Origin: Arenicellales bacterium
GTDB lineage: Bacteria; Pseudomonadota; Gammaproteobacteria; Arenicellales; JAJDZL01
Direction of reading: 5' to 3'
Length of the DNA stretch: 64,000 nt
Assembly: GCA_965214785.1 (NCBI GenBank)
Contig: OZ243975.1
Coordinates: 708,914-772,913 of the forward strand
Positions within the stretch are counted from its first letter, which is position 1. Each line of letters opens with the position of its first letter. Below are positions 2,359 through 48,312 of the stretch, in pieces. The notes below the pieces were generated by a model, which saw nothing but the letters and a program-made list of their open reading frames with translations, was not told the DNA's origin and did not search any database. A program made the position numbers and the translations under genes.

Positions 2359-3453
2359 ATGATTGAAGAGTCTTCATCGAGACGAATATACGGATCGGTT
2401 GACTCTTTAGCAATCACCCACAATCTTGCGGTTGCCCGCAACTGCGCTCCAAATTCCAAAGTCATGGCGGTCGTCAAAACGAACGCTTACGGTCACGGTC
2501 TGGTTCCCGTTTCAAAGCTGTTGGACGATTCAATCGATGCATTAGCAGTAGCGACCGTAGATGAGGCGCTAACACTGCGACGTGCGCAAGTGCGCTCGCC
2601 GATTTGCGTACTGTCCGGATTTTATTCAGCAGATGACCTTGAACGGATCGTAGCCCGTGACATCTCGGTTGTGGTGCATTGTGTACAGCAGATTGAAGCG
2701 ATCAAGCATTCAAAAGTGTTCAATAAAGTTCCCATCTGGCTGAAAGTCAATTCAGGTATGAATAGATTGGGATTTTCGACGAATTCGATTGAATCAGTTT
2801 TTGACGAACTTGATAATATGGACAATGTCGACTTAGTTGGAATCATGTCGCATTTTGCTTGCGCTGATGATGTCAATTCGAACTATACACTCGAGCAGAC
2901 TGATCGATTCATCAACGCAACAAAGAATATCCCATTGCCGCGAAGTATTGCCAATTCTGCAGGGATTCTAAAGTGGCCAAATAGTCATCTGGATTGGGTT
3001 CGCCCCGGTATTATGCTTTACGGCGCGTCGCCGATCATAGGTCAGAATGCAAGCCAATTGGGTTTGCGTCCTGCGCTAGATCTCTACTCTACGATCATCG
3101 CCATTCACAAAATTCGAAAAGGCGAGAGAATTGGTTATGGATTGAACTGGACAGCTTCTGGCGACACCGTAGTGGGAATCGTCGCCTGTGGTTATGGTGA
3201 CGGTTATCTTCGAAGTGCGTCTTCACAAGCCCAAGTTCTCGTTAATGGAGTACCAGCTAACATCATTGGGACAATATCAATGGATACAATGGCTGTTGAC
3301 GTAACAGACCACTTGGAGGTGAAAACAGGCAGTGCCGTTAAATTAGTCGGCGCTGGAATTCCCGTTGAAGATGTTGCTGCTTGCGCAAATACGATTCCAT
3401 ATGAGTTTCTCTGTTCATTCAATCCGCGTACTGTAACGATTGATTTTGCCTGA
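2359..3453 (+). CDS. alr: Alanine racemase
   Basis: 364 aa. It has the PLP-lysine motif AVVKTNAYGHG and lies in dnaB-alr synteny as in other gammaproteobacteria. Confidence 0.9.
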   Translation: MIEESSSRRIYGSVDSLAITHNLAVARNCAPNSKVMAVVKTNAYGHGLVPVSKLLDDSIDALAVATVDEALTLRRAQVRSPICVLSGFYSADDLERIVARDISVVVHCVQQIEAIKHSKVFNKVPIWLKVNSGMNRLGFSTNSIESVFDELDNMDNVDLVGIMSHFACADDVNSNYTLEQTDRFINATKNIPLPRSIANSAGILKWPNSHLDWVRPGIMLYGASPIIGQNASQLGLRPALDLYSTIIAIHKIRKGERIGYGLNWTASGDTVVGIVACGYGDGYLRSASSQAQVLVNGVPANIIGTISMDTMAVDVTDHLEVKTGSAVKLVGAGIPVEDVAACANTIPYEFLCSFNPRTVTIDFA

Positions 3454-4551: not shown

Positions 4552-7227
4552 TTACATTTGTTTAATGACTAAAGCCTTGATGATTTGGACTTCCAAGGAT
4601 CGCTGGACAGCTTCATCCTGCAAAGGCTCATCATCTCGGTCGACTATAAAAAAAACATCTTCGACTCTAGCGCCGGAGGTCGTAATTTTTGCAGAAAGCA
4701 AGTGTATTTTGTGGTCTAGCAGCGCTCGCACCACGTGATACAAAAGCCCGGGACGGTCCTGCGCGGTGACTTCCATAATCGTATAGTCATTGTTCGGAGA
4801 TCGGGTAAAGCGAACCTGCGTTGGAAATGCAATATGGCGTGCGACACGATCCTGAGCAACCAATCGTGGTGAGTGGTCAACTATCCGGTTGACCATAGCA
4901 CTTCTGACTTCTGATTCAAACTTACGTAAATTAGTATCACTGATACCTTCATCTGGTTGACGAACCAAAACTACAAACGTAAAAACTGTAAGTCCAGTTT
5001 TCAATGGATGCGTTCTGGCTTCGACCACGTTCAGATAACATCGGTCAATTGCACCTGCGATGATGGCAAACAGTTCTTCCGACTTGGCAGCGATCACAAA
5101 AATCTGATAAACATCAATAGAAGGGTGTACACGGAAATTCACGCAGGGCAGGGCAATCGCATTGGTTTTCGCACAATTTTCAACATGCCAGGCGATTGTG
5201 TTTGCATCATAACTGAGAAAATACTCATCATCACACAATTCCCACAACCGGTTGGCTACGTCTTTGAGCTGAGAATTTCTGCCGATTACCGCCAGTGTAT
5301 CGATCTTAATTTCCTCTATACGAGGTTCGATTTCGCGATGTGGTAGAGTATCGGTCAAAAGCATATGGGAAGTCGCAAGATACAGGTGTTCGAGCATTTT
5401 GCCTTTCCAGTCGTTCCACACCGTCGGGCCGGTGCCTTGCATGTCCGCAACAGTCAGCAAAAGCAAGTGATCGAGATGCTCTTGATTGCCAACTTTCACA
5501 GCAAACCTTGCGATTACTCCAGAGTCATTAAGATCTTCACGTTGACTTGTAAAACTCATTGCCAGATGATTTCGAACTAACCATGCTATGAGATGAGAGT
5601 CGTAGTCATCCATTCCCAGTTTCTTACAAAAGGCAAAAGTCTCATGTTCGCCCAGTTCACTGTGATCTCCTCCCTGGCCTTTGGCAATGTCATGAAACAG
5701 TCCTGCAAGAAACAGTCTTTCAATCTTTATGATTCGCGACATGGCTTCTGCAGCGAGTGGGAAAGTCTTCGCGCTGTCAGACAAAGTCAGTGAATGAAGA
5801 TTGCGTACGACATTCAATAAATGTGCGTCCACCGTGTACACATGAAAAAGATCATACTGCAATTGTCCTGTAATGCGTTTGAATTGGGGGACAAGTCTTC
5901 CAAGCAGTCCGGTATCGTCCATAAGTCCAAGGGTTTCAGGCAGACGATCGGCAGTAGCGAAAATACTGCGCAGCATGGACTGAACAGTTGGCTTTCGACG
6001 AATTTTGCTGTTAATCAGCATTCGGTTTGATCGCATAAGACGAAGAGTTTTTGCACGAACCCCACGGATACGTCCGTTATTTTGAAATACACAGCAAACT
6101 TCAAGCAACACTTCCGGCTGGGTGCTGACTTTGTCAGGCTCTATCAAGTCCAAGAAGCCATCGACCATTTGAAATTTGTGATCAATGGTTTTTATTTTTG
6201 AACGTTGACGAGTCAAAAATGATTCTTCATAATGCTGAAGTAATATCTGATTAATATGACGCAACTCTTTGACTGTGCTGAAGTATGTTTTCATCAACTT
6301 TTCTACAGCTTTGTTTGCGTTGTCGTCAGTAAAACCAAAATTCTTGGCAAGTTTGAGTTGATGAGAGAAAAGCAGCCTGTCGTCTCGACGTCCAAGTTCA
6401 AAGTGCAATTCGTTTCGCAGTCGCCAAAGGTAGTTCCGCCCTTCGATTAGTGTTTGATACTCGTCATTGTGTAAAAATCCTCTGTCAACGAGTTCACGCA
6501 GGTTGCGACTGCCAAAGTGGCGTTTTGTCACCCACGAAACGGTATGAATGTCACGTAATCCACCGGGGCCTTCCTTAATATTGGGTTCCAGGTTATAAGC
6601 GGTGTCTGCGAATTTGCGATGACGATTTCTTTGTTCTTGTAATTTGGCCTTAAAAAATTTACGAGCTGGCCAAATTTTCGATTGTTGAAGGCTGGTTTCA
6701 AGTTCGCGATAAAGCGATTGATGTCCTGCACAGTAACGCGATTCAAGCAAGTTGGTCATGACCGTGATATCTGCGGCAGACTGACTGATGCAGTCCGACA
6801 GTGTTCTTACACTGTGTCCCACTTCAAAACCGATGTCCCAGAAAAACCGCACCATTTGTTCAATAGAGCGGTTTACATTGTCATTGCATCCGGTACCCAG
6901 CACCGTCATGATATCGATATCAGAATGCGGATTGAGTTCTTCACGACCATATCCGCCAACTGCAACCAGACAGCAAGGGTTGTTGATTTCATGGGAAGCC
7001 ATAAACAGTTCCCAGACATCCTTGAGCACGCGATCGACTGTTTCGACCCGATACGCAACAAGCTGGGAGGCTGAACAGCCATTTTTGTGCAATGTTTTGA
7101 TTGCTTCAGCATCGTGTTCGACACGGTGCCGAAAGCTTTCAAGACAAACGTCTTTCGATGCAGAGTTGGCTTTCGGTAAAGCCAATTTTACGGAACCTGA
7201 TAAAAATCGGGATTGATAAGGAAACAA
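4552..7227 (-). CDS. glnD: Bifunctional [protein-PII] uridylyltransferase/uridylyl-removing enzyme
   Basis: 891 aa. It has a nucleotidyltransferase motif (GGYGREELNPHSDIDI), an HD domain (LFHDIAKG) and two C-terminal ACT-like regions. Confidence 0.9.
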   Translation of the reverse strand: MFPYQSRFLSGSVKLALPKANSASKDVCLESFRHRVEHDAEAIKTLHKNGCSASQLVAYRVETVDRVLKDVWELFMASHEINNPCCLVAVGGYGREELNPHSDIDIMTVLGTGCNDNVNRSIEQMVRFFWDIGFEVGHSVRTLSDCISQSAADITVMTNLLESRYCAGHQSLYRELETSLQQSKIWPARKFFKAKLQEQRNRHRKFADTAYNLEPNIKEGPGGLRDIHTVSWVTKRHFGSRNLRELVDRGFLHNDEYQTLIEGRNYLWRLRNELHFELGRRDDRLLFSHQLKLAKNFGFTDDNANKAVEKLMKTYFSTVKELRHINQILLQHYEESFLTRQRSKIKTIDHKFQMVDGFLDLIEPDKVSTQPEVLLEVCCVFQNNGRIRGVRAKTLRLMRSNRMLINSKIRRKPTVQSMLRSIFATADRLPETLGLMDDTGLLGRLVPQFKRITGQLQYDLFHVYTVDAHLLNVVRNLHSLTLSDSAKTFPLAAEAMSRIIKIERLFLAGLFHDIAKGQGGDHSELGEHETFAFCKKLGMDDYDSHLIAWLVRNHLAMSFTSQREDLNDSGVIARFAVKVGNQEHLDHLLLLTVADMQGTGPTVWNDWKGKMLEHLYLATSHMLLTDTLPHREIEPRIEEIKIDTLAVIGRNSQLKDVANRLWELCDDEYFLSYDANTIAWHVENCAKTNAIALPCVNFRVHPSIDVYQIFVIAAKSEELFAIIAGAIDRCYLNVVEARTHPLKTGLTVFTFVVLVRQPDEGISDTNLRKFESEVRSAMVNRIVDHSPRLVAQDRVARHIAFPTQVRFTRSPNNDYTIMEVTAQDRPGLLYHVVRALLDHKIHLLSAKITTSGARVEDVFFIVDRDDEPLQDEAVQRSLEVQIIKALVIKQM

Positions 7228-7265
7228 ACCATCAGATCAAACTATATAAATTCGGCAAATAGTGC

Positions 7266-8042
7266 TTAGACTTCGCCAGTCATAGGGGAAAGAGTAAGAA
7301 TTTCATATCCATTTTGCGTTACTGCAATGGTGTGTTCCCACTGAGCTGAAAGGCTGCCGTCGTTAGTCACCACTGTCCAGCCATCGGCCTGTAGCCTCGT
7401 TTCTTTTTTACCTGCGTTGATCATGGGCTCAACCGTAAACACCATACCAGGCATGATTTTCAAACCCGAATTTGGTTCTCCGTAATGCACAACTTGAGGT
7501 TCTTCGTGGAAATTCCGACCAATTCCGTGTCCGCAATATTCACGCACTATTGAATAGCCGTGGCGCTCAGCATATCGTTGTATTGCATAGCCGATGTCAC
7601 CAAGTGTAGCCCCTGGTGCGATTTGCTCGATGCCTTTGACCATGCTCTCATGACAGATTCGACAGATTCTTGCAGCTTTGATGGAGGGTTTGCCAACCAA
7701 AAACATTCGAGATGTATCTCCGTGGAATTCGTCTTTAATCACCGTTATGTCAATGTTGATGATGTCTCCGTTTTTTAAGACTTTGTCATTCGGAATTCCA
7801 TGACAGACGACATTATTGACTGAAGTGCAGATTGATTTTGGAAATCCGCGATAGTTCAAAGGCGCTGGTATGCACTGCAAATCCTTAGTAATGTATTCGT
7901 GACAAATTCGATTTAGTTCGTCAGTAGAAACACCTTCGACAACGTGCGGTTCAATCATGTCGAGTACAGAAGCGGCAAGGCGGCCAGCGACACGCATTTT
8001 TTCGATTTCTGCTTGAGTTTTTAAAGTAAAAGGGGCTGTCAC
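7266..8042 (-). CDS. map: Type I methionine aminopeptidase
   Basis: 258 aa. Motifs include VCHGIP, DIINIDITV, GHGIG and EPM. GTG start. Confidence 0.95.
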   Translation of the reverse strand: MTAPFTLKTQAEIEKMRVAGRLAASVLDMIEPHVVEGVSTDELNRICHEYITKDLQCIPAPLNYRGFPKSICTSVNNVVCHGIPNDKVLKNGDIINIDITVIKDEFHGDTSRMFLVGKPSIKAARICRICHESMVKGIEQIAPGATLGDIGYAIQRYAERHGYSIVREYCGHGIGRNFHEEPQVVHYGEPNSGLKIMPGMVFTVEPMINAGKKETRLQADGWTVVTNDGSLSAQWEHTIAVTQNGYEILTLSPMTGEV

Positions 8043-8387
8043 GGTTTACAACGATTCAAAATTCTTTCTTTTCAACTTCTATTGTCGGATGACACTTGCA
8101 CTCATAGTCCGTCAATTGTCGCATATCAGTGCTACGCTTGCCACGGATACAGGGGATGATCGTGCAGGGGGAGTACGATAACACAAGATAATGTTCAATT
8201 GACGAAATACTGCGGAACAAATGGGCTCATGAACTGTATTAGCCGAACATTATTCAAATAGTCAATGCGTTAATATTCAGTGAACATACGAACTGTAAGA
8301 TTACGTAAAGTGAATTGTTACAAGAGGCAGTGAATACTTTGTGCTGACTTCACCATGGCCATTCGCAGTGAGGCAGCGCACTGAGCA

Positions 8388-9878
8388 TCAATCAACGGTA
8401 TATTGAGCAACCATATCGACTGCCTTTTTCCATCTCCTCAATAACCTTTTACGTTCATTGCAATCCATCTGCGGTTCAAAAACGCGGTCAAGCTGCCAGT
8501 TATTTTTGATTGAATTCAAAGATGAAAACAACCCGATGTGCAGTCCCGCCAGAAAAGCAGCGCCTAACGCGGTAGTTTCGGTATTGGTTGGCCGATCGAC
8601 CGGGAGATTGATTACATTACAAAGAAACTTGCAGAACCAGTCGTTGTTCGCCATTGCGCCATCGATTCGCAGACGTGCGACGGTACTGCCGTCGCTACGA
8701 ATCGCTTCAAGCAAGTCTGCTGTTTGGTAAGCAACTGATTCCAAGGCCGCGCGGGTGATTTGTGCTTTTCCGGTATCCCTCGTTATTCCGAAAACTGCAC
8801 CACGCGCGTTTGGCAACCAGTGCGGTGCACCTAGTCCGGTTAGCGCAGGCACCAGATAAACCCCACAGTTGTCATTGAGTGAAGCAGCGATATCCGCAGA
8901 TTGCGCCGCGTCTTCGAAAAAATTCAATTCGTCCCTTAACCACTGCATTGCTGCTCCTGCCACAAAAATTGATCCTTCCATCGCATAACAAGTCTGTCCG
9001 TTGAGACGGTAACCAACCGTAGATAGCATCTTGTGTTGAGACTTGATCAATTCACGGTCCGTATTGATTACAACGAAACATCCGGTGCCATAGGTGCTTT
9101 TGACCATGCCGGGCTCAAAGCATGCTTGTCCAATCAAAGCTGCTTGCTGATCACCTGCAACACCGCAAATCGGTAGAGTCTGGCCCAATATCAAAGCGTC
9201 GCTAACACCGAAGTCGTCTGCACTGTTTTTCACTTGAGGCAAACACTGTTCAGGAATGGAAAACAAACGCAGCAGATCTGGATCCCAACGCTGGTTGCGG
9301 ATGTCAAATAACATCGTTCTTGAGGCATTGGTGGCATCGGTCACGTGGTTTGCTCTACCAGTCAAATGCCAAATCAAAAAGGTGTCGACCGTTCCGAACA
9401 TCAGTTCGGCGCGCTCGGCACGTTGTCGCACTCCTTCGACATTGTCCAGAATCCATTTAAACTTGGTAGCTGAAAAATAAGGGTCTGGGAACAGTCCTGT
9501 CTTATCTTGAATTAACGGAATCAATCCATCGTGTTGTAGGGAAGCACAGTAGGATGCTGTTCGTCGATCTTGCCATACGATTGCGTTATAAACGGATTCG
9601 CCTGTATTGCGATCCCACACTACAGCGGTTTCGCGCTGATTTGTAATTCCTATTGCTTTGACAGCACCGGGCAAACTTTCCGCGTATTGCAATACTGCAC
9701 GAGCCACCTCGAGTGTCGTTCCCAAAATATCATTCGGGTCGTGTTCAACCCAGCCATCGTTTGGAAAATGTTGAGCAAACTCTTTTTGCTCAGTGTGGCG
9801 AACCTGTCCGTCCTGATCAATCAGGAGTGCCCGAGAACTGGTTGTACCCTGATCTATGCTTAGAATATAGGATTGCAT
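8388..9878 (-). CDS. glpK: Glycerol kinase
   Basis: 496 aa. The N-terminus YILSIDQGTTSSRALLID and the GITNQRET motif are typical of FGGY-family GlpK. Confidence 0.95.
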   Translation of the reverse strand: MQSYILSIDQGTTSSRALLIDQDGQVRHTEQKEFAQHFPNDGWVEHDPNDILGTTLEVARAVLQYAESLPGAVKAIGITNQRETAVVWDRNTGESVYNAIVWQDRRTASYCASLQHDGLIPLIQDKTGLFPDPYFSATKFKWILDNVEGVRQRAERAELMFGTVDTFLIWHLTGRANHVTDATNASRTMLFDIRNQRWDPDLLRLFSIPEQCLPQVKNSADDFGVSDALILGQTLPICGVAGDQQAALIGQACFEPGMVKSTYGTGCFVVINTDRELIKSQHKMLSTVGYRLNGQTCYAMEGSIFVAGAAMQWLRDELNFFEDAAQSADIAASLNDNCGVYLVPALTGLGAPHWLPNARGAVFGITRDTGKAQITRAALESVAYQTADLLEAIRSDGSTVARLRIDGAMANNDWFCKFLCNVINLPVDRPTNTETTALGAAFLAGLHIGLFSSLNSIKNNWQLDRVFEPQMDCNERKRLLRRWKKAVDMVAQYTVD

Positions 9879-10092
9879 TGAAATTTTCGTTTGTCAAAGC
9901 GTTGTTTCTGAGTCTGTATCAATGATATTCGTTTATATCTTGAATTCCGAAGAGTTAAATCGCATAGGATGACACGATTCTATTTCATCATCGTCAGAGT
10001 GTCAGGAAGTGTATTGGACGCGGAATATTTCAACAGTACAAGCGTCAAGGTAATACAATAAGCGCCTGAGTTTTGATGGACTAATACTGACA

Positions 10093-12834
10093 GTGGTAGG
10101 AACAAGACTTAAACAAAAGTGCTTGAAAATGCAATTCACACACATAAATTTCAGTAACCGAACCGAGTTTTATTCATCGCGGCATCCGCGTTATAAATCC
10201 AAACCGTTCTACCCCCCCCCCGCTGGATCTAGTCGCCGCTTAGCACCGCCTGTCGTAAGCGCAAGTACTGCGACAGATCACTTTCGTCTTCATCCTCAAA
10301 CTTGCGGCATCAAGACCGCATTTTTGTGCTCAGCCTTATCAGCAGCACTTGCAGCATCGCTGTCAAGCGCTGATACCACACAGCAAACGATTGAACAGGC
10401 CATTGACTATCCGGAAGGTGCTGTAGCCAGAATCACTTCTGTCGCACCCAAAGATGCGCTGTGGACGCTTGAGGGTGAAGACGCAAAAAGATTATTGATC
10501 GAAGACGGTGTACTTCGATTTTCTGAAGACGGCCTTCGAGTCGCCCGACCTGATTTTGAAATCCCCCGTGATGCAGACGGTGACAATGTCTACCGCGTTC
10601 GCGTAACGCGCATTATCGATGATGCAGATAAAAAGCGAAGCTATGATTTCGTAATCAGGGTCACCGACCGCGATGAACCAGGTCGCATCAAGACATCCAC
10701 CGTTCACCCAGTCAACGGTGAAACTGTTCAGGTTCATCTTACAGACCCTGATGACATCGAAGGAGAGATCCGATGGCGCTGGCAGCGCTCGGCGGAACCT
10801 GACCAATGGATTTCCATTGATGCCGTCAATTCTTCCTCCTACACCCCAAACGCAGGCGATACAGGTCACTTCATTCGCGTCATCGCTGAGTACCACGACC
10901 GTCTAGGCGGTCCCCGTACGGTAAAGGCTCTTTTACCTGAAACTGTAATTGGCCCAAAGCTACTATCTTTAGATGCCAAAACCGACCATGGCGGAAAAAC
11001 ACTTCATCCGCTGTTTGACCCTGTCATCACTCACTACGGCATCGAATGTGACGAGCGCGATGTGTTGAGTGTGAACTTCACCTTACCACAAGATATCAAA
11101 GCATCAGTCAACGCCATACAGCCTCGCCCGGGGCGCAAGACAGGAGCAGCGGCAGCTGTAGAAGAAACCAGTGATACAAAGATTGTCTTATCTCAAGCAG
11201 ACGGTGCGAGTACGACCTACACCATACACTGTCTGCCACAGCAGCTTGCCAAGATACGAACCAAACCGGATCCGAACAATCCGCTTGACGTACTGCTTGG
11301 GGTAACAGCAGGGCCCTTTGCAGCAGTGATTGACGAAAACGGAGTCTCGCGCGCGCATATCAAGGCAAGCCGCGGCAAATCAGGTTTCTTTTTTCGACCT
11401 TTCGGCTCAGGGCACAACATGCGCTTTGCGCATGTTGAAACATCAGCAGAAGAAAAACAGCACTGGCGAGTGCTTGATCGAAACTTCAATACGGTGCGCA
11501 CCGTTGCCACCGCTTCGCCTTTGACCACGACCGGGCGTCACGACTTTCGGCTGCTTGCAGATGGTTCTTCTCTGCTGATGACTTATGAACCTCAAGTTCG
11601 GGACTTCAGTTATCTTTCTTTTCCTGACCCAGACGGTGAACCGTGGGGAAGCGCGGTAGAAACCGAAGATTCAGCTATTCAATGGCTCGGTCCTGACGGC
11701 AAAGTGCGGTGGACCTGGAATTCCTGGGGCCGAATACCACTTGAAGACTGTTCACAGCACCGTTTTCCGCAAGACTGGGCGCATGTCAATTCAATTGAAT
11801 GGACAGATCAAGGCGTACTGGCATCTTTTCGCGGCTGCTCTTCAATTTTGATGATTGACCCTAAAGCTCCATCAGGAGACGAGATCGTCTGGCGTATTGG
11901 CAGAACCAATTTGCAGGCAGATGAGTGGAAAGAACGCGGTCTTAGTCCGCCTCCGCTTGCGATTGTCGGTGATCCGGAAGGTGAGTTTTGCGGTCAGCAC
12001 GCGGCAATGCTGCTGGCGCCACCTGCAGGATTGGAGCTTTCGCGCTTACTTTTGTTTGATAACGGTGTTGCTTGTGTAACCAACCCACATACAGGTGAGT
12101 CACTTGGCCGCGAATCTGACCGTTACAGCAGAGCTTTAGAATACGCAATTGATGTTGCAAACGAAGAAGCGATCTTTGTACGCGACCATGCTCTTGGCAA
12201 TAGCCGAGACCGCCTTGGCTTTGCAGGCGGTCATGTAGAACCTTTATCTGACGGCAAGTGGCTTGTGAGTTGGGGCGGAGGTGGAGCAAACAACACCGGT
12301 GAAAACCTTGGCCTTGAGATTACTGACTTGGTGACAGCAGTTGATCCAGACAAAGGACAAGAAACCTTTTCCATCCCGGTTGGCGATGATGACAAAGCGA
12401 CTGCCGGATTTCGGGTACTGCCTGTTGCATTGGATCTGTTGATGCGCCCGCAAGCGCAATTGCATGCATTTTTTCCAGACCCGCTGCCACCTTCTCACGA
12501 TGGTGCAGGTAAGACATTTTCGATTCTTGTGTCTTTTTCTCGGCCGATCTCAGACTTTGGTGTAGATACCCCGTCCATTGAGATTAGCGGCGGTGAACTT
12601 ACCGAAGTACAAGCTTTCACTTCATTCGGGCGACCTGCAAACAGTTATGAGATTTTCATCAAACCTGCTGCAAGCGATCCGATGTGCCTGTCGTTTCGGA
12701 CAAAAATCAGCTGCACTGAAAGAGAAAGCATATGCAGTGCTGACGGGACTGAGCTCACCGAAGCACCAGAACCTTTTTTGATTCCAGGCAGTGACTTATC
12801 CAACGGTCAGTCGCACACAAACAAGTGCACATGA
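10093..12834 (+). CDS. Secreted multidomain protein with cadherin-like beta-sandwich modules and an arylsulfotransferase (ASST)-like beta-propeller. The start codon is uncertain.
   Basis: A signal-peptide-like segment KTAFLCSALSAALAASLSSA|DT occurs only at residues 74-93. A cadherin-like segment reads LSLDAKTDHGGKTLHPLFDPVITHYGIEC...TTYTIHC. ASST-like motifs are GRHDFRLLADG and DWAHVNSIEWTDQGVLASFRGCSSILMIDP...IVWRIGRTN. No ATG, GTG or TTG lies between the C10 tract and the signal peptide. Confidence 0.7.
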   Translation: MVGTRLKQKCLKMQFTHINFSNRTEFYSSRHPRYKSKPFYPPPAGSSRRLAPPVVSASTATDHFRLHPQTCGIKTAFLCSALSAALAASLSSADTTQQTIEQAIDYPEGAVARITSVAPKDALWTLEGEDAKRLLIEDGVLRFSEDGLRVARPDFEIPRDADGDNVYRVRVTRIIDDADKKRSYDFVIRVTDRDEPGRIKTSTVHPVNGETVQVHLTDPDDIEGEIRWRWQRSAEPDQWISIDAVNSSSYTPNAGDTGHFIRVIAEYHDRLGGPRTVKALLPETVIGPKLLSLDAKTDHGGKTLHPLFDPVITHYGIECDERDVLSVNFTLPQDIKASVNAIQPRPGRKTGAAAAVEETSDTKIVLSQADGASTTYTIHCLPQQLAKIRTKPDPNNPLDVLLGVTAGPFAAVIDENGVSRAHIKASRGKSGFFFRPFGSGHNMRFAHVETSAEEKQHWRVLDRNFNTVRTVATASPLTTTGRHDFRLLADGSSLLMTYEPQVRDFSYLSFPDPDGEPWGSAVETEDSAIQWLGPDGKVRWTWNSWGRIPLEDCSQHRFPQDWAHVNSIEWTDQGVLASFRGCSSILMIDPKAPSGDEIVWRIGRTNLQADEWKERGLSPPPLAIVGDPEGEFCGQHAAMLLAPPAGLELSRLLLFDNGVACVTNPHTGESLGRESDRYSRALEYAIDVANEEAIFVRDHALGNSRDRLGFAGGHVEPLSDGKWLVSWGGGGANNTGENLGLEITDLVTAVDPDKGQETFSIPVGDDDKATAGFRVLPVALDLLMRPQAQLHAFFPDPLPPSHDGAGKTFSILVSFSRPISDFGVDTPSIEISGGELTEVQAFTSFGRPANSYEIFIKPAASDPMCLSFRTKISCTERESICSADGTELTEAPEPFLIPGSDLSNGQSHTNKCT
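10212..10221 (+). repeat. Homopolymeric C10 tract inside the 5' end of the 10093-12834 ORF
   Basis: Read directly: tac ccc ccc ccc gct (Y40-P41-P42-P43). The ten consecutive C residues lie 28 codons after the ATG at 10129 and about 90 nt before the signal-peptide coding region. Confidence 0.95.
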
Positions 12835-12901
12835 ACAAATCAAAAGATCCAAAACCCTTGCGCGTTTGTCGCAATCGGTCAGATAACAAAGGAGTTTACC
12901 T

Positions 12902-15900
12902 ATGAACGGTTCAAGCAAAGATCGAACTGACAATCCGGTTATTGAAATTAGGCCTAAGTTTTGTTTTAAACGATGTAGTCGGTTGAGTCATTACAGGGCT
13001 GGCGCTGCATCGCAATATGCTGGACGCTTATTTCGAAATGTGATGACCGGATTGCTGGCGCTGCTGATCGCGGCTACGTGGATGTCGGGGGCGCAGGCGC
13101 AATCAACGGCCAATCCCGCTGGCTTGTGCGAAGGTCAGATAACGGAAGTCACTTTTTCAGATGTTTCAGCAAGCAGCACCACCACCCCAACTTGGGTCGA
13201 TATAACCAATACTTCTTTTTCTTCCGGTCATGTGTGGTTTGTGAATACCGACGGCACGAATGCGGGTCAGTCCAATTTTCCGGTGAGCGTGGTAAACGAC
13301 AGTTTTACTGTACGAATTCAGCTTGCAGATAATCTCGTGACGAGTTCTGGAGCGTCAACCGTATCTGTTAGTGAATTGAGTTCGAGCTATTGGGACGGCG
13401 TAAGATTTGATATCTGGGATTCTACGGATTCGAGATGCGCGGCCAGTACCACCGACGGCGTCACCCTTTCCGTATCCGCCCTAACTTTGACCGAGCTTGG
13501 TAGTTCCAGCGATGCCGAGAAGACCTACACCGTAGTGCTTGACACCGATCCGGGCGCCGATGTGACCTTCACGGCGACGGTGCCGGCGGCAAACAGCTCC
13601 GAGGTCGAGATCAAGACCGGCAGCGGCGCTTTCGGCAGCAGCGCCACGCTCACTTTCACCCATGGCAATACCGGCAACTGGAGTTCGGCGCAGACGGTGA
13701 CGGTCAGGGCGCTGAACGATGCCAATGCAACCAACACCACCTCCTTCAACCTCACTCACAGCCTGACCGTGGCCAGCGGTCCCTACGCAAGCATCACACC
13801 GGACCCGGTTGCGGTGTCGGTGACCGACGCCGGCCACGGGGTCACCGTGTCCAAGGCCAGCGTTTCGGCGACGGTGGGTGGCGCTACCGGGACCTACACG
13901 ATCCAGCTCAAAAGCCAGCCTGGCGGCTCGGTGGTCATCACGCCGACCTCGAGCGCCACGGCGAGGGCCACGGTGTCGGGCGCCCTGACTTTTACGAACT
14001 CGAACTGGTCCACGCCGCAGACGGTGACCGTGACTGGCGTCGATGCTGGCTCGGCCACGATCAGCCACATGGTGACGACCGGCACCACGGACTACCCGAC
14101 CAGCACGACGATCGCCTCGGTGACGGCGACGGTCACAACGTCAACGTCGTCAGTTCCGGTGATTTCGATGTCGCTTCCGAGCGGCGAGAGCGAGATGTAC
14201 ACGGATGACGACGAGCTGATCCGCCCGGAAAGCGAGGGCGGTACCGGCGTGCTGTTCACCGTGAGTGCCGACCGGCCGCTGCCGAGCACGCTGACGGTGT
14301 GCGTGCGGGTGACCGAGAGCGGCGGCGACCGGGTGACCTCGGGCAATGAGGGCATCAAGACGGTGAGCCTGCCCAGCGAGACCCTCACCACCAGTTCGAA
14401 CACCCACAGTCTCACCTGGACAAACACGAACACGGACGACCAGGACAGCAGCGTGACCGTCGAGGTAGTGGCGCCCAGCACAGTGGGCTGCTCGGTGGCC
14501 AACGACGCCTACACGGTCTCGTCCAGCGACGCCTCGGACAAGCTACTCATTCAGGATGACGAGGCGACCACGGTCTCGCTCACAAGTACAGACATAACCA
14601 TGACCGAGGGCGATGCCTCGGACACTGCTACGCTCACGGTTTCGCTGTCCCGCCAGCTCTATGCCGGCGAGGTCATCGTCGTACCGTTGACGTTGGCGTC
14701 GAGCACCGGAGCGCGGCTGCCGGGGAGCACGAACAGCGGCACTGCCAACCACGATTTTACGGTCGCGGCGGCGGCCGCGTCCGGACATAGCGGTTTGACA
14801 ATCGCGAACGCATTGACGGCCACGCCGAGCCTGACCTTCACCGGCCACGACAGCAATACGGTGCAGACGGCGACGGTGACGCTGACCCCGGTGGCGAACC
14901 GCGATGACGGAAACATGGCCCGCGAGTCGATCACCGTGACACTAGCGTCCGACAGCATACTCGGCGCCACCGGGACGGGCACGACGGTGAGCGGCGGCGT
15001 TCAGCGGCATGCGTCGAACAACGCGGCGACCCTGACCTTAGAGGACGACGAGGCAGTTCCGGCCGGCACGCCGGGCATCACCCTGTCGCCGCTCGGCCCG
15101 CTGCGCCTGCTGGAGACCGGCACGACGAGCTACACGGTAGTGCTCGACGCGGCGCCGACGCATGATGTGACGGTCACTGTTACCAAGAGCCAGGCGGGTT
15201 TAACGGGAACGGGAACGGGACGCACACCCGACCAAAATGCTGCGGACCCCAGCTCGAATCAACTCACCTTCACGACTACGAACTGGAGCCAGCCGCAGAC
15301 GGTGACCGTGACAGGGGCGGACGAGTCCGGCAGGCACCGGAACCGCGCGATGCGTTTAATCCATTCGGCAGGATCGACCGACTCCCGCTACACTGGCTTC
15401 AACACCAACATCCGGGTCGATGTGGACGACGCGCCCGAGGTTGAGGCGTTTTGGTACATCAAGGGCGGCGGCGCGCTCAATTCGCGGATCCGGCGACCGC
15501 ATACGATAACGTCAAGCGGGCTGACGGCGTGGCAGAACGCGGCACCCGGCGACAGAATAAACTACGCCGTACGCCTGTCGAACCGCCCGGCGCCCGGCGG
15601 CACGGTGACAGTGACAGCGACGGTGCCTTCCGACAAGCGCAACCTCGTCGGCCTGTCGCTGACCGAAGGCGGCACGGCGCAAGACACGGTGACGGTTGAG
15701 TTCAAGGACCGCAGTCCCGGCGCAGGCACGGGCTGCAGCAACTGGTTCGGCCATCAAGCGCATCAATACTTCGACAGCCACGGCAACACGCGGACAGTGT
15801 CGGGCCGCCAGCCAGGCGAGAGCTACGACGGCACGGCGGACACGCCCTGGGAGTGCTGGCGCATGATTTATGTGGTGCGCAAGGACGCCTCGCGCGACAT

Positions 15901-18900
15901 CGATGACACTTGCGTCGACATCACCCACACCGCCACAGGCGGCGGCGTGCGCAAGGTCACGGTCGATACGATCCGCGCCCATGTAAGGAACCCGTCGCGC
16001 AACAGACGGGGGTCAAGAGGTTACAATAGCCAATGCTCCAACCTGACCGGCAACACGCTTTCCCCGCAAGGATCGCCCGCGAAGGCCGCACCCACACCCA
16101 CCGAGGCGGTGGCCAATGTTCAGGTGACGGCGGTGGACGACACCAGTGCCAGCGTCACCTGGGATGCGGTAGAGCACGCCACCTCCTATGACGTGTCGTG
16201 GAGTGCTGAAAGCAGCGACGCTCTGAACGCTTCGGCCGGTGACTTGCCCGGCATAACGGCCACCACGACCACCATCGACCACGGCGCCTCGGTACCGATG
16301 ACACTTACGGTTACAGTAATACCGGAATACATCGATGAAAACGGTGACACCGTACAATTGGATGATCTTGGTACAACAGCAACATTGGAAGTCGGCCCTG
16401 GAAGCGATGCCCTTCGCGCTGAAGCACAAAGCCCGGATACACAATCGACGCAATCGGCTGTAACACCCGCGCAGCGTTTGGAGGCAGCTAAGCTGTGCGT
16501 GTCAGACACGCTGATGGAAAAGACAAAGCGTTATTACGAACTTCACCGAAACAAGGCACCGGGTTATGGTGCGAACTGGTTTGCTATTTTGACTGCGTTT
16601 GGCGAACGTACGCAAGTCGACTGGACAGCTGACAGTCGTAGCATAGAGCCGATGAGCGCCGCTTCTTCGCGCGAGCGCGAGTCGAAGTGGAGCGGCTGGA
16701 AGCCTTTTACCGAAGCATTGGAATGTGTAGAGGGAGAACTTGCAAAGGTACAAGCTGCCGCACAAGCCGAAGCACAAGCGGCAGAACAAGCGGCAGAACA
16801 AGCCGATGAAGTCGCACCACTAGTGCTACCGGATGATCTGACAGTGACATTAGAATCCGCTGATTCAGCATCCGGCGTAACAGAAGGCACTGAAGTGTCT
16901 TTTACGCTCAAGGCAGACAGTGCACCGACAAAAGAGCTTGAAGTGACGGTAACGGTCACTCAGACAGGCAGCGTTGCAGATACTTCAGCCACAGGCGAGC
17001 GCAAAGTAACGATTCCGGTCGGTCAGACGCAAGCGGCTTTTAAAGTAGCAACATTAGCCGATGACACCGATGAGGTACAAGGTTCTCTAACGGCAACCGT
17101 ATCAGACGGTACAGGCTATAAGACAGATGATCAAAGTGCAAGTGTAACGGTAGCTGTAAATGATGATGATGCAACATCCATTACGCTCAGTGCCAGTGCA
17201 GACGATCTGACAGAGATTGTTTCTGAAGGATCAAGCAAAAAGACACTGACAGTCACATTAGGGCGTACACTGATCGAAGGTGAAAGCATCGAAGTGCCGC
17301 TTGTCTTTACCGGCACCGCATCGCTTGGCAGCGACTATACGCTTGAAGCGCCAAAGACAGTACCAACCGGGGTGAGCTATGCCAACCTTGGAGGCAGTGA
17401 TCCTGCCAAGGCACCGACAGTGACTTTTGCAGGTTCTACAGGTGGTGTATCTTCACTAACAGCAACACTGACGCTGACCACAGTTGCCGACAGCAAAGCT
17501 GAAGATGACAAAGAGACCGTTACAGTCAAATTGGGCACACCGGCTACAACAGGATTAGGCGGCGGTGTTTCGACTTCTGGAAACGTACAGTTCTCCATCT
17601 TGGAGCCTGTACCTGAGATTTCCATTACAGCAAAGACAGAAACGGTTACAGAAGGTACAGATGCGGTATTCACTGTAAAAGCTAGCCGATCTTCAGGATC
17701 TGACCTTACAGTTAATCTTACAGTCTCAGAATCGGAGGGCAGCGACTTCGTTGCCGCAGATAAAGAAGGTACAGCTACAGTTACCATCACCAAAGGGGAG
17801 ACGGAAGCTGACTTTTCAGTACCGACTGTAAACGATACGGTCAATGAACCCGATGGGTCGGTAACCGTAACGGTTGTCGAAGACGGTGAAAAAGGACAGT
17901 ATTACTCTCAAGCCTCATCACCTGGAGATTCAGCTTCTATAAAAATCACCGACAACGATGCAGTTGCGACGGGACCGGAATTTTCTGTAGCTGATGAAAC
18001 CGCCAATGAGAATGTGGGTTTAATGTACTTTACGGTTCGCTTGGATCGTTCATTGAGTCAAAAAGTACAAGTGACATTCAACGTACGCGAATCGAGTCCT
18101 GTCTCAGCCCGTATGGGACAAGATTACTTTTGGTGGTGGGAAGACGGTCTTGCGCTTACCTTTTACCCGGGTCAGACCCAAAAGAAGATGTGGGTATATG
18201 TCTATAACGACAATCACGACGAAGACCCTGAGACCTTTGAGGTGGTGTTATCGAATCCGACAGGGGGTACAGCCATCGGTGATGGTGTTGCGGTTGGTAC
18301 CATTGTGAACTCTGATCCGATGCCAGCTGCGTGGTTGTCGAGGTTTGGGCGCACCGCTGCGCAGCAAGCCTTAGACGGCATTGCCGCTCGCATTGAATCT
18401 TCAAGAACTTCAGGTATTGAAGGCTCTATAGCCGGACAGGCGCTTGTGTTTGATCCCCAATCCAAATCACTTGTCACAAGCGGTACAGCACAAAACAGTA
18501 CTGCAAACAGTCTTACTGAAACATCATCGCTTGCAAGCTTTGATGCAGATCATGCATTTGGAGATAAAAAAGACGCATCAGGCAATACCGATCCCTTCGG
18601 TTACCAGTCGTATTCTATGACTGAGCGAGAAGCGCTTTTAGCAAGCTCTTTCACGGCAACCGAAGATAAAGATTCATCTGGAGGCTCTTTGGCCTTTTGG
18701 GGCCAGGCTTCACAATCGAACTTCGATGGAACAGAAGGGACGTTTTCCTTAGACGGAGAGGCGACTACTTTGATGAGCGGTACCGATTATGCACGAGGCG
18801 AGTGGCTTTTAGGCATCGCATTGATGCAATCCAAAGGCAAAGGCGGTTATCGCGATACCGATACGGTAAAGCAAGCGGATCTTCCGCAATGTAAAGAAGA

Positions 18901-47486: not shown

Positions 47487-47783
47487 TCATTGACCGGAAC
47501 AGCTGTTTATCTTTTTTCGGAGTGAATCAACCTGTTCGCGATTGAGTCTCGTTAACTCGACAATCTCATCGGATTTCATACCCCTTAGCAGCAATTTTGC
47601 CGCGACCTCTTCATGACCTTTTTCAATGCCTTGTTCAATGCCTTGTTCAATACCTTTTTCAATGCCTTGTTCAATGCCTTTTTTTAAACCTTCTTCCTGA
47701 AGTTCATCTATAGCTGACATCACCATCTGTTTTTCCTCTGGCGTTCTGGTTTCAAAACTCGATTTCTCTAAACGGTCGGCCAA
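47487..47783 (-). CDS. Stand-alone copy of the Rpn-like C-terminal tail domain (RpnS-like small protein), long-repeat variant
   Basis: 98-aa ORF with a TTG start and no obvious SD. MADRLEKSSFETRTPEEKQMVMSAIDELQEEGLKK(GIEQ/GIEK)x5 GHEEVAAKLLLRGMKSDEIVELTRLNREQVDSLRKKINSCSGQ is homologous to the last roughly 75 aa of the 48313-49245 protein. Confidence 0.5.
   Translation of the reverse strand: MADRLEKSSFETRTPEEKQMVMSAIDELQEEGLKKGIEQGIEKGIEQGIEQGIEKGHEEVAAKLLLRGMKSDEIVELTRLNREQVDSLRKKINSCSGQ
47619..47690 (-). repeat. 12-bp in-frame coding repeat (GIEQ/GIEK units), six units
   Basis: Plus strand: tttttcaatgcc ttgttcaatgcc ttgttcaatacc tttttcaatgcc ttgttcaatgcc tttttttaaacc. The paralogous copy at 48051-48074 has two units. 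The parental gene has EEGR-type units instead. Confidence 0.9.
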
Positions 47784-47918: not shown

Positions 47919-48179
47919 TCATTGTCCGGAAGAGCCGTTTATCTTTTTTCGGAGTGAATCAACCTGTTCGCGATTGAGTCTCGTTAACTCGACAATCTCA
48001 TCGGATTTCATACCCCTTAGCAGCAATTTTGCCGCGACCTCTTCATGACCTTTTTCAATGCCTTGTTCAATGCCTTCTTTCCGACCTTCTTCCCGAAGTT
48101 CATCTATAGCGGACATCACCATCTGTTTTTCCTCTGACGTTCTGGTTTCAAAACTCGATTTCTCAAAACGGTCGGCCAA
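47919..48179 (-). CDS. Stand-alone copy of the Rpn-like C-terminal tail domain (RpnS-like small protein), short-repeat variant
   Basis: 86-aa ORF with a TTG start. The sequence is MADRFEKSSFETRTSEEKQMVMSAIDELREEGRKEGIEQGIEKGHEEVAAKLLLRGMKSDEIVELTRLNREQVDSLRKKINGSSGQ. Confidence 0.5.
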   Translation of the reverse strand: MADRFEKSSFETRTSEEKQMVMSAIDELREEGRKEGIEQGIEKGHEEVAAKLLLRGMKSDEIVELTRLNREQVDSLRKKINGSSGQ

Positions 48180-48312
48180 TGCGAGTGAATTGTTGACTTT
48201 CGTATAAAGTCGACTTGAAATGTACAGGCTTTTACCAAGGCAGCTTCTATCGAAACGCTACTTATCTTGGAATTGTGTCTTTTGGAATATCGAAGTGTCC
48301 AAGGTTTTCGAA

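Follow-up and report, generated by a model that had tools for sequence, protein, structure and literature searches.

The tract of ten cytosines described here is located in a 64,000-nt stretch of DNA from an Arenicellales bacterium (assembly GCA_965214785.1, contig OZ243975.1), which is referred to as a whole as the window. It lies near the 5' end of the plus-strand open reading frame (ORF) 10093-12834, which encodes an ASST-like protein of 913 amino acids (aa). Exactly ten C residues occupy positions 10212-10221, with TA on the 5' side and G on the 3' side (...CCGTTCTA-CCCCCCCCCC-GCTGGATCTAG...). The codons across the tract are TAC CCC CCC CCC GCT, specifying Y40, P41-P43 and A44. A sequence-only reading of this DNA had assigned the run to P41-P43 and had proposed that it acts as the slippage site of a phase-variation switch. 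The coding assignment was confirmed, with the addition that the tract also supplies the third base of the Tyr40 codon; the proposed slippage was assessed by a run count, shuffles and homologue comparison. From 5' to 3', the plus strand carries a pre-tract leader of 27 codons and the first two bases of the Tyr codon (10129-10211, MQFTHINFSNRTEFYSSRHPRYKSKPFY), the tract, a linker (10222-10308, AGSSRRLAPPVVSASTATDHFRLHPQTCG), a signal-peptide-like segment (10309-10371, IKTAFLCSALSAALAASLSSA, then D) and the body of the ASST-like protein (10372-12834). The linker of 29 codons separates the tract from the signal-peptide-like segment, in agreement with the distance of about 90 nt noted previously.

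The signal-peptide-like segment was read from the sequence by its hydrophobic core and the small residues at -3/-1, and an equivalent segment is present in all homologues. PF05935 (ASST) matched residues 549-773 of the 913 aa (about 11737-12411) over profile positions 161-373 of 374, with an E value of 8.9e-17 and a score of 61.6 bits against the cut-off of 24.2. PF14269 also matched the body (E=1.8e-5), and a scan of the protein against NCBIfam matched no model. By its profile score the protein is assigned to the ASST family PF05935; we label it ASST-like. About 40 full-length homologues were found. The closest are P0001 (93% identity, 836 aa; locus L001) and P0002 (63% identity, 874 aa; locus L002 of an Arenicellales metagenome-assembled genome, MAG), the latter of which keeps ...YSSRHP...YPPPAGSS.... 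The comparison set consisted of the window, L001, L002 and eight further homologue loci, amounting to 152 kb for the census of homopolymer runs.

The C10 tract is the sole run of seven or more C or G residues in the window, whose G+C content is 46.9%, and no C10 or G10 run arose in any of 100 dinucleotide-preserving shuffles of the window (0/100). The run had been called conspicuous in a backbone of moderate to low GC content, and these counts bear this out. A G or C homopolymer of about eight or more residues in the 5' coding region, which is the criterion for a homopolymer contingency gene, is present at this locus.

Three in-frame start codons are located 5' of the tract: GTG 10093, TTG 10123 and ATG 10129. 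The first and the last had been taken for the only canonical in-frame starts upstream; both exist, but TTG 10123 had been overlooked. From the tract to the hydrophobic segment there is no in-frame ATG, GTG or TTG, as previously stated, though a TTG at 10324-10326 (L78) sits inside the segment. This plus-strand codon, at which gene callers started the 836-aa alleles, is a possible weak re-initiation site. When tract lengths from C7 to C13 were simulated, only C7, C10 and C13 linked any ATG, GTG or TTG to the body, and no start was left upstream of 10324 with C8, C9, C11 or C12. Read from ATG 10129, the frame meets the TAG at 10230-10232 with C11 (or C8) and the TAG at 10241-10243 with C9 (or C12). 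In the simulation, a change of one C in either direction shifts the frame, truncates the product and leaves no canonical start before the signal peptide. TAG 10230 is part of GGATCTAG, a string that the window, L001 and L002 share without change, and a TAG is also found at the L002 position aligned to 10241. Both out-of-frame stops are kept at the aligned L002 positions, which may merely follow from the conserved AGSS peptide.

The leader bears the signature of a coding sequence, and the tract, which starts 83 nt past ATG 10129, lies within it. Starting at ATG 10129 and running through the tract, 36 codons could be aligned gap-free with L002, and the start codons match up, ATG 10129-10131 corresponding codon for codon to GTG 5965 of L002. 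The 28 differences over these codons are distributed 10/2/16 among codon positions 1/2/3, which departs from an even spread (chi-square calculated by hand, p ~0.005), and the proportions of synonymous and nonsynonymous differences are 0.48 (pS) and 0.19 (pN), respectively. The other two frames of the leader showed no comparable codon-position bias. On the 5' side of ATG 10129, the in-frame similarity to L002 decays and the alignment contains a 2-nt indel; on the 3' side of the tract the two genes differ by indels of 12 and 3 nt, which keep the frame. The pre-signal-peptide region of the tract-less pair L008/L009, used as a control, gave 10/15/10 with pS about equal to pN, and the gene bodies of the same pair gave 23/19/48. 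Because of the codon-position bias, the aligned starts and the frame-preserving indels, we conclude that the leader is translated through the tract in the frame of the ORF, and ATG 10129 is the most likely start codon of the in-frame (ON) allele. No Shine-Dalgarno-like sequence was seen at the candidate starts of the ASST-like gene, ATG 10129 and TTG 10324 included, and several other genes in the window are likewise devoid of one. A candidate sigma-70-type promoter (TCAACA-18-TACAAT, 10030-10059, plus strand) is a weak call from a consensus scan only; its sequence is kept in L001. An exhaustive HMMER search of 1.84 billion representative proteins produced no homologues of the leader outside the clade and only two internal low-complexity matches. 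On this result and the lack of an N-terminal Pfam match, the idea that the leader is a wider protein family or a sorting signal was rejected.

The same data bear on the possibility that the leader is a separate upstream ORF, in which case either TTG 10324 or ATC 10309, a near-cognate codon, would be the start of the protein and the tract would alter coupling or attenuation only. Gene callers indeed began the out-of-frame (OFF) alleles at this TTG: P0001 and P0053 were both called from its equivalent (MCSALSAAL), with the leader left out. Moreover, the codon expected for the Met of the signal peptide (10309-10311), at the start of the n-region, is ATC in the window, in L002 (about 6133) and in L011 (about 2965), whereas at about 3140 it is ATT in L008 and ATG in L009 (P0015, 'MADRKSP...'). 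The ATC of L002 is preceded, at a distance of 12 nt, by GGGAGGG, a strong Shine-Dalgarno-like sequence, and a weak terminator-like hairpin is found in the window at 10303-10320. However, the continuity of frame between leader and body is kept by the 12- and 3-nt indels, and the body frame is open back across the tract in every locus, including those that are out of frame. A start at TTG 10324 would drop the charged n-region, in addition to being without a Shine-Dalgarno-like sequence, and ATC is a very poor initiator. The hairpin, with its 5-bp stem, was rejected as an attenuator: its z of -1.47 falls short of significance, and L002 lacks the T-run. We therefore hold a separate upstream ORF to be very unlikely. 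The ATC at the Met position fits a design in which expression relies on the upstream start and leaves room for weak near-cognate initiation.

The homopolymer is conserved between the window and L002 at the nucleotide level. With dS at about 2, synonymous sites have reached saturation between the two. In the long ORFs of the window no proline codon is rarer than CCC (16%; 27% in L002), and among the other prolines conserved between the two genes CCC is used in both at only 1 of 44. TAC CCC CCC CCC is nevertheless present in both. Given the peptide YPPP, the probability of this codon string calculated from codon usage is 0.002 for the window and 0.012 for L002. Since this rare string has been kept at saturated synonymous divergence, the C run is maintained by selection acting on the nucleotides; selection for the YPPP peptide cannot explain it. 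The pure repeat has been kept beyond the needs of the encoded peptide.

Tract length is not fixed across the related loci, a point on which the proposed switch could be checked: the alleles are C10 in frame (window), C9 out of frame (L001, 5890-5898), C10 in frame (L002, 6048-6057), C10 out of frame (L011, 2884-2893) and C24 (L010, 2792-2815). L001 shares the gene order of the window (glnD-map-FGGY-ASST-giant), with about 96% identity over 8.8 kb. When the two were aligned with MAFFT, two indels only were seen, both in homopolymers, namely an intergenic A7/A6 and the tract itself (C10/C9). The L001 product ends ...YPPPLDLAAA* at the TAG equivalent to 10241, and because the C9 frame ends at this TAG the gene was called from the TTG. 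The L001 body comprises 836 codons without a stop, and its ratio of nonsynonymous to synonymous substitution (dN/dS) against the window is 0.27, as compared to 0.06-0.08 for the housekeeping neighbours. In the linker, which evolves fast, the same ratio is 0.67 on 34 codons. The open 836 codons and the dN/dS of 0.27 show that the gene body has been kept under selection on both sides and that the C9 allele is not decaying. Thus, length differs among close relatives, with in-frame and out-of-frame alleles and intact bodies, in a small sample in which assembly error is possible.

P0053 (836 aa) is a third variant, likewise called from the equivalent of TTG 10324, and probably represents a second copy of the gene within the genome of the window. 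It is identical to P0001 at residues 1-60 and to the window protein at residues 100-300, and these mosaic variants suggest recombination or gene conversion. The FGGY sugar kinase gene of L001 (4066-5556, the orthologue of window 8388-9878) has a nonsense mutation in codon 198 and was annotated as two separate genes; apart from this, comparison with the window shows strong purifying selection on it (dN/dS 0.08). This split was considered as a sign of homopolymer assembly quality and rejected, since it is due to a nonsense codon with no homopolymer indel.

Poly-C runs were also found in the equivalent place in more distant lineages. In L011 (50% identity; circular 3.46-Mb contig; 58% G+C), the sequence is ATG AAT AAC GAT CCG CGA TTT TCG ATC TA-C10 (region 2855-3001). 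No stop interrupts the body frame between the tract and the signal peptide, and the ATG would be in frame at C8 or C11 only and is out of frame as assembled. In L010 (57% identity; 64% G+C), which is located on a 4.29-Mb contig of the sample that also yielded L001 and L002, ATG ATT GTT TA-C24 is present (region 2781-3001). Its body frame is open back across the tract over 62 codons; C23 or C26 would place the ATG in frame, and at C24 a TTG is in frame. The tract is always preceded by TA in L001, L002, L010 and L011. The ASST-like gene of L008 is tract-less, and the giant partner gene of this locus holds a C21 run instead (6092-6112, region 5959-6300): a Shine-Dalgarno-like sequence, an ATG (5959) and 44 codons precede the run, and a signal peptide follows it. 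The frame of this gene is open across C21 and out of frame as assembled. The contig of L009, the sister of L008, stops exactly in the leader of the giant gene, possibly owing to an assembly break at a tract. All six G/C runs of at least eight residues in the 152 kb of the window and loci (6/6) consist of C on the coding strand and lie in leaders of this kind. A search for further alleles in genome contigs with the pattern TAC7+...GCNGGATCTAG gave only the Arenicellales MAG OZ243952.1, which was already in the comparison, and two metagenome scans gave nothing or chance C7 matches only.

These comparisons also have to be weighed against a simpler explanation without regulated switching: the tract may encode a fixed stretch of prolines, or a plain frameshift mutation may have occurred; the C9 of L001 and the out-of-frame C10 of L011 would then be assembly or consensus errors or dead alleles. 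Every comparison locus is a metagenome assembly, both window/L001 indels fall in homopolymers, and a low-coverage contig (L012, 4x) is frame-inconsistent as well. L001 further has the nonsense codon in its FGGY kinase gene and non-conservative changes in its leader. On the other hand, three CCC codons and TAC have been kept in spite of the rarest proline codon and the saturated synonymous sites, and pure C runs of 10, 21 and 24 in the equivalent place in other lineages would be left unexplained. The L001 body is intact (dN/dS 0.27), and the contigs of L001, L010 and L011 have high coverage or circular closure (118x, 296x and circular, respectively). We consider a fixed feature unlikely.

The out-of-frame alleles with intact bodies could also be accounted for by an action at the RNA level. 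RNA polymerase slippage or ribosomal frameshifting, instead of or alongside an action on the DNA, would mix the frames; full-length protein would then be made to some extent from all alleles, the tract controlling its amount and not an ON/OFF state. C21 and C24 are long enough for transcriptional slippage to be expected, and the six runs are without exception poly-C on the coding strand. CCC-C sequences are known +1 frameshift-prone sites for tRNA-Pro, and consecutive prolines (PPP) stall ribosomes. However, no stimulatory RNA structure (fold z-scores +0.59 and +0.72) and no match to an Rfam family were found, and the genomic tract lengths do differ between close relatives. The sequence offers nothing to tell RNA slippage from DNA slippage, and the two can coexist. 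As the explanation of the locus, the RNA-level action seems quite unlikely.

Several other candidates were tried and rejected. A structured RNA was discarded since no Rfam family matched at the gathering score in the whole window, the hits near the tract at E<5 were at chance level and the fold was no more stable than those of shuffles. A promoter-spacer function was not favoured because no convincing -10, -35 or sigma-54 element was seen by eye beside the tract and because its flanks are coding. The SRRL motif 3' of the tract was dismissed as a twin-arginine signal, since it is not conserved (HG in L002) and lies about 30 residues from the hydrophobic core.

We propose that the C10 tract is a conserved, hypermutable homopolymer in the translated leader of a secreted ASST-like protein and that it acts as a slipped-strand ON/OFF switch; the probability of this reading is estimated at roughly 0.7. 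The geometry put forward in the sequence-only reading, with the homopolymer between the start codon and the secreted body, is supported by the coding constraint on the leader, the conservation at the nucleotide level, the differences in length and frame and the intact body of L001. The window allele would represent the ON state, in which translation would proceed from ATG 10129 through 28 leader codons, Pro-Pro-Pro, the 29-codon linker and the signal peptide into the body. Slipped-strand mispairing during replication would add or remove one C, and within a population such changes would occur often and be reversible. The ribosome would halt at TAG 10241 with C9 or C12 and at TAG 10230 with C11 or C8. 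In the OFF state, exemplified by C9 in L001, no canonical start would remain before the signal peptide; the shifted frame would abolish export, and the secreted protein would be absent or present at a trace level.

Several observations weigh against this proposal. The related loci come from long- or short-read metagenome assemblies, in which homopolymer length is the commonest consensus error, and the difference between C9 and C10 could be technical. ATG 10129 has no Shine-Dalgarno-like sequence and may not be the true start, and it is unusual for a signal peptide to begin some 60 residues into a protein. Expression independent of the tract could be allowed by the in-frame TTG 10324 or by the conserved ATC 10309, the counterpart of which in L002 is preceded by GGGAGGG. 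The L001 leader is changed at residues conserved between the window and L002 (F8S and R18W), which also fits a permanently inactivated leader. In bacteria whose mismatch repair is active, a tract of ten C residues is among the shortest of those that are highly mutable.

The ASST-like gene is followed on the same strand by the gene for a giant Calx-beta repeat protein of 2327 aa (12902-19885), its conserved partner in the homologous loci. The gap of 67 bp between the two genes (12835-12901), which had been given correctly before, has exactly the same length in L001 (8512-8578) and L002 (8626-8692) despite saturated divergence. The spacer has no terminator or promoter match and is a likely operon junction; its conserved blocks are TGCNCATGAAC and TTGCAATCGRTCA, and a Shine-Dalgarno-like sequence is present. 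Because this conserved spacer has no terminator, polarity of the tract on the giant gene is plausible, and the OFF state may lower the expression of the giant gene too. The description of the giant neighbour as an autotransporter was not upheld. Only Calx-beta was found in it by Pfam and NCBIfam, with no C-terminal beta-barrel translocator domain of the kind that defines type V autotransporters, and its orthologues have He_PIG, Big_12, fn3 and Calx-beta domains. The giant protein of the window has about 47 residues (MNGSSKDRTDNPVIEIRPKFCFKRCSRLSHYRAGAASQYAGRLFRNV) before a signal-peptide-like segment (MTGLLALLIAATWMSGAQA), and a strong Shine-Dalgarno-like sequence is associated with its start (window 12902-13100). 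Long pre-signal extensions thus seem common to both genes of the cassette. The giant partner gene is present in L001, L002, L010, L011, L013 and L015. Upstream of the ASST-like gene, the divergent genes are those of the FGGY sugar kinase, map and glnD.

Repeats of a different type were observed in four high-GC loci. Arrays of 8-nt tandem repeats are located at 2186-2265 in L012, 2841-2968 in L013, 2813-2972 in L014 and 335-486 in L015, 30-160 nt 5' of the ASST-like gene, and consist of perfect copies of AGCCGCGA (x10 and x16), AGCCGGTC (x20) and AGTCGATC (x19). The repeat unit is lineage-specific and the position constant. A promoter-like pair, TTGACA-20 nt (18 in L015)-TATAAT or TACAAT, sits 1-2 nt 5' of each array; the 20-nt spacer is unusual for sigma-70. 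One gene caller translated an array as (SVDQSISR)n. We know of no exact counterpart of such arrays, with 10-20 perfect copies placed 1-2 nt after TATAAT. In L014 the ASST-like gene is found between a phage-type integrase and an IS66 transposase set (1-1082 and 6167-8606), and a 111-aa ORF takes the place of the missing giant partner gene; this context hints at a mobile cassette. Elsewhere in the window, the minus-strand ORF region at 47616-47696 and 48049-48466 contains several 12-nt tandem repeats of in-frame length, CCTTGTTCAATG and similar units.

Arenicellales have been reported from sponges, and the KELL22 samples may also be of sponge origin, which the Ircinia paper did not confirm. A wider view of the cassette can be offered tentatively, and we rate it at somewhat less than an even chance. 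The ASST-like propeller and the giant Calx-beta protein may form a host-interaction cassette of several distinct, partly co-resident symbionts of marine invertebrates or sponges, placed under stochastic control by a hypermutable 5' repeat in each. In the gammaproteobacterial and mid-GC lineages the repeat would be poly-C (C9-C24) in the pre-signal coding leader of one gene or the other, and in the high-GC ones a perfect 8-nt array (10-20 copies) at the -10 box. The replacement of the signal-peptide Met codon by ATC or ATT would make expression dependent on the repeat. If true, no contingency-locus system would have been described in such symbionts before this cassette; in the literature that was searched, no report of homopolymer phase variation for marine invertebrate or sponge symbionts was found. 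The recurrence of different repeat types on one cassette across lineages is a concrete hypothesis which can be tested at the read level.

If the tract switches, a secreted propeller enzyme, and perhaps also a giant protein resembling adhesins, would be diversified within clonal symbiont populations. Such switching, if true, would bear on the evasion or negotiation of host recognition by the symbionts and on phage pressure. The consequences for annotation are more immediate. The protein is annotated with 913 or 836 aa according to tract length, and because gene callers keep or drop the export signal in this manner, the secretome and pseudogene counts of such MAGs are distorted at these loci.

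In the literature that was searched, the closest parallel in a secreted enzyme is the nanH3 sialidase gene of Gardnerella piotii, which carries a poly-C tract of 8-14 C about 100 nt into the ORF, by the segment coding for the signal peptide (bioRxiv 10.1101/2020.09.16.300947). Most tract lengths lead to truncated peptides of 37-44 aa, and length variation within colonies was shown experimentally (bioRxiv 10.1101/2020.09.16.300947). The window gene resembles nanH3 in having a cytosine tract early in the ORF of a secreted enzyme, and for both genes an out-of-frame tract leads to annotations without the signal peptide, here those of P0001 and P0053. It differs in that the nanH3 tract is located just after the signal peptide, whereas the window tract lies about 90 nt before it, in a lineage-specific leader of about 60 residues. 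Moreover, G. piotii is a Gram-positive human commensal with experimentally demonstrated variation, while the window derives from a marine gammaproteobacterial MAG.

An N-terminal extension ahead of a normal Sec signal peptide on a large secreted protein is also a feature of the extended signal peptide region (ESPR) of autotransporters and two-partner secretion proteins. The window leader, of about 60 aa, is unrelated to the ESPR in sequence and matches no N-terminal Pfam family. Repeats that tune transcription from upstream positions are represented by the poly-C in the promoters of Bordetella fim2 and fim3, the poly-G of Moraxella catarrhalis uspA1 and the AGAT repeats in the 5' untranslated region (UTR) of uspA2. 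These are the nearest analogues of the 8-nt arrays abutting the -10 box in L012-L015; the window tract differs from them in being part of translated sequence rather than of a UTR or promoter spacer.

Phase variation through homopolymers is a textbook phenomenon in human mucosal pathogens. In the contingency genes of Neisseria, Haemophilus, Campylobacter and Helicobacter, a G/C homopolymer in the 5' part of the gene determines the frame and, consequently, the ON or OFF state of surface or secreted products. The window locus shares with these genes the 5' tract, lengths that differ among strains and intact OFF alleles. Those organisms have tens of such loci with measured rates, whereas here a single cassette in uncultured bacteria is concerned. 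The proposed mechanism would thus be an ordinary one, and it is its setting in uncultured symbiont lineages that would be new.

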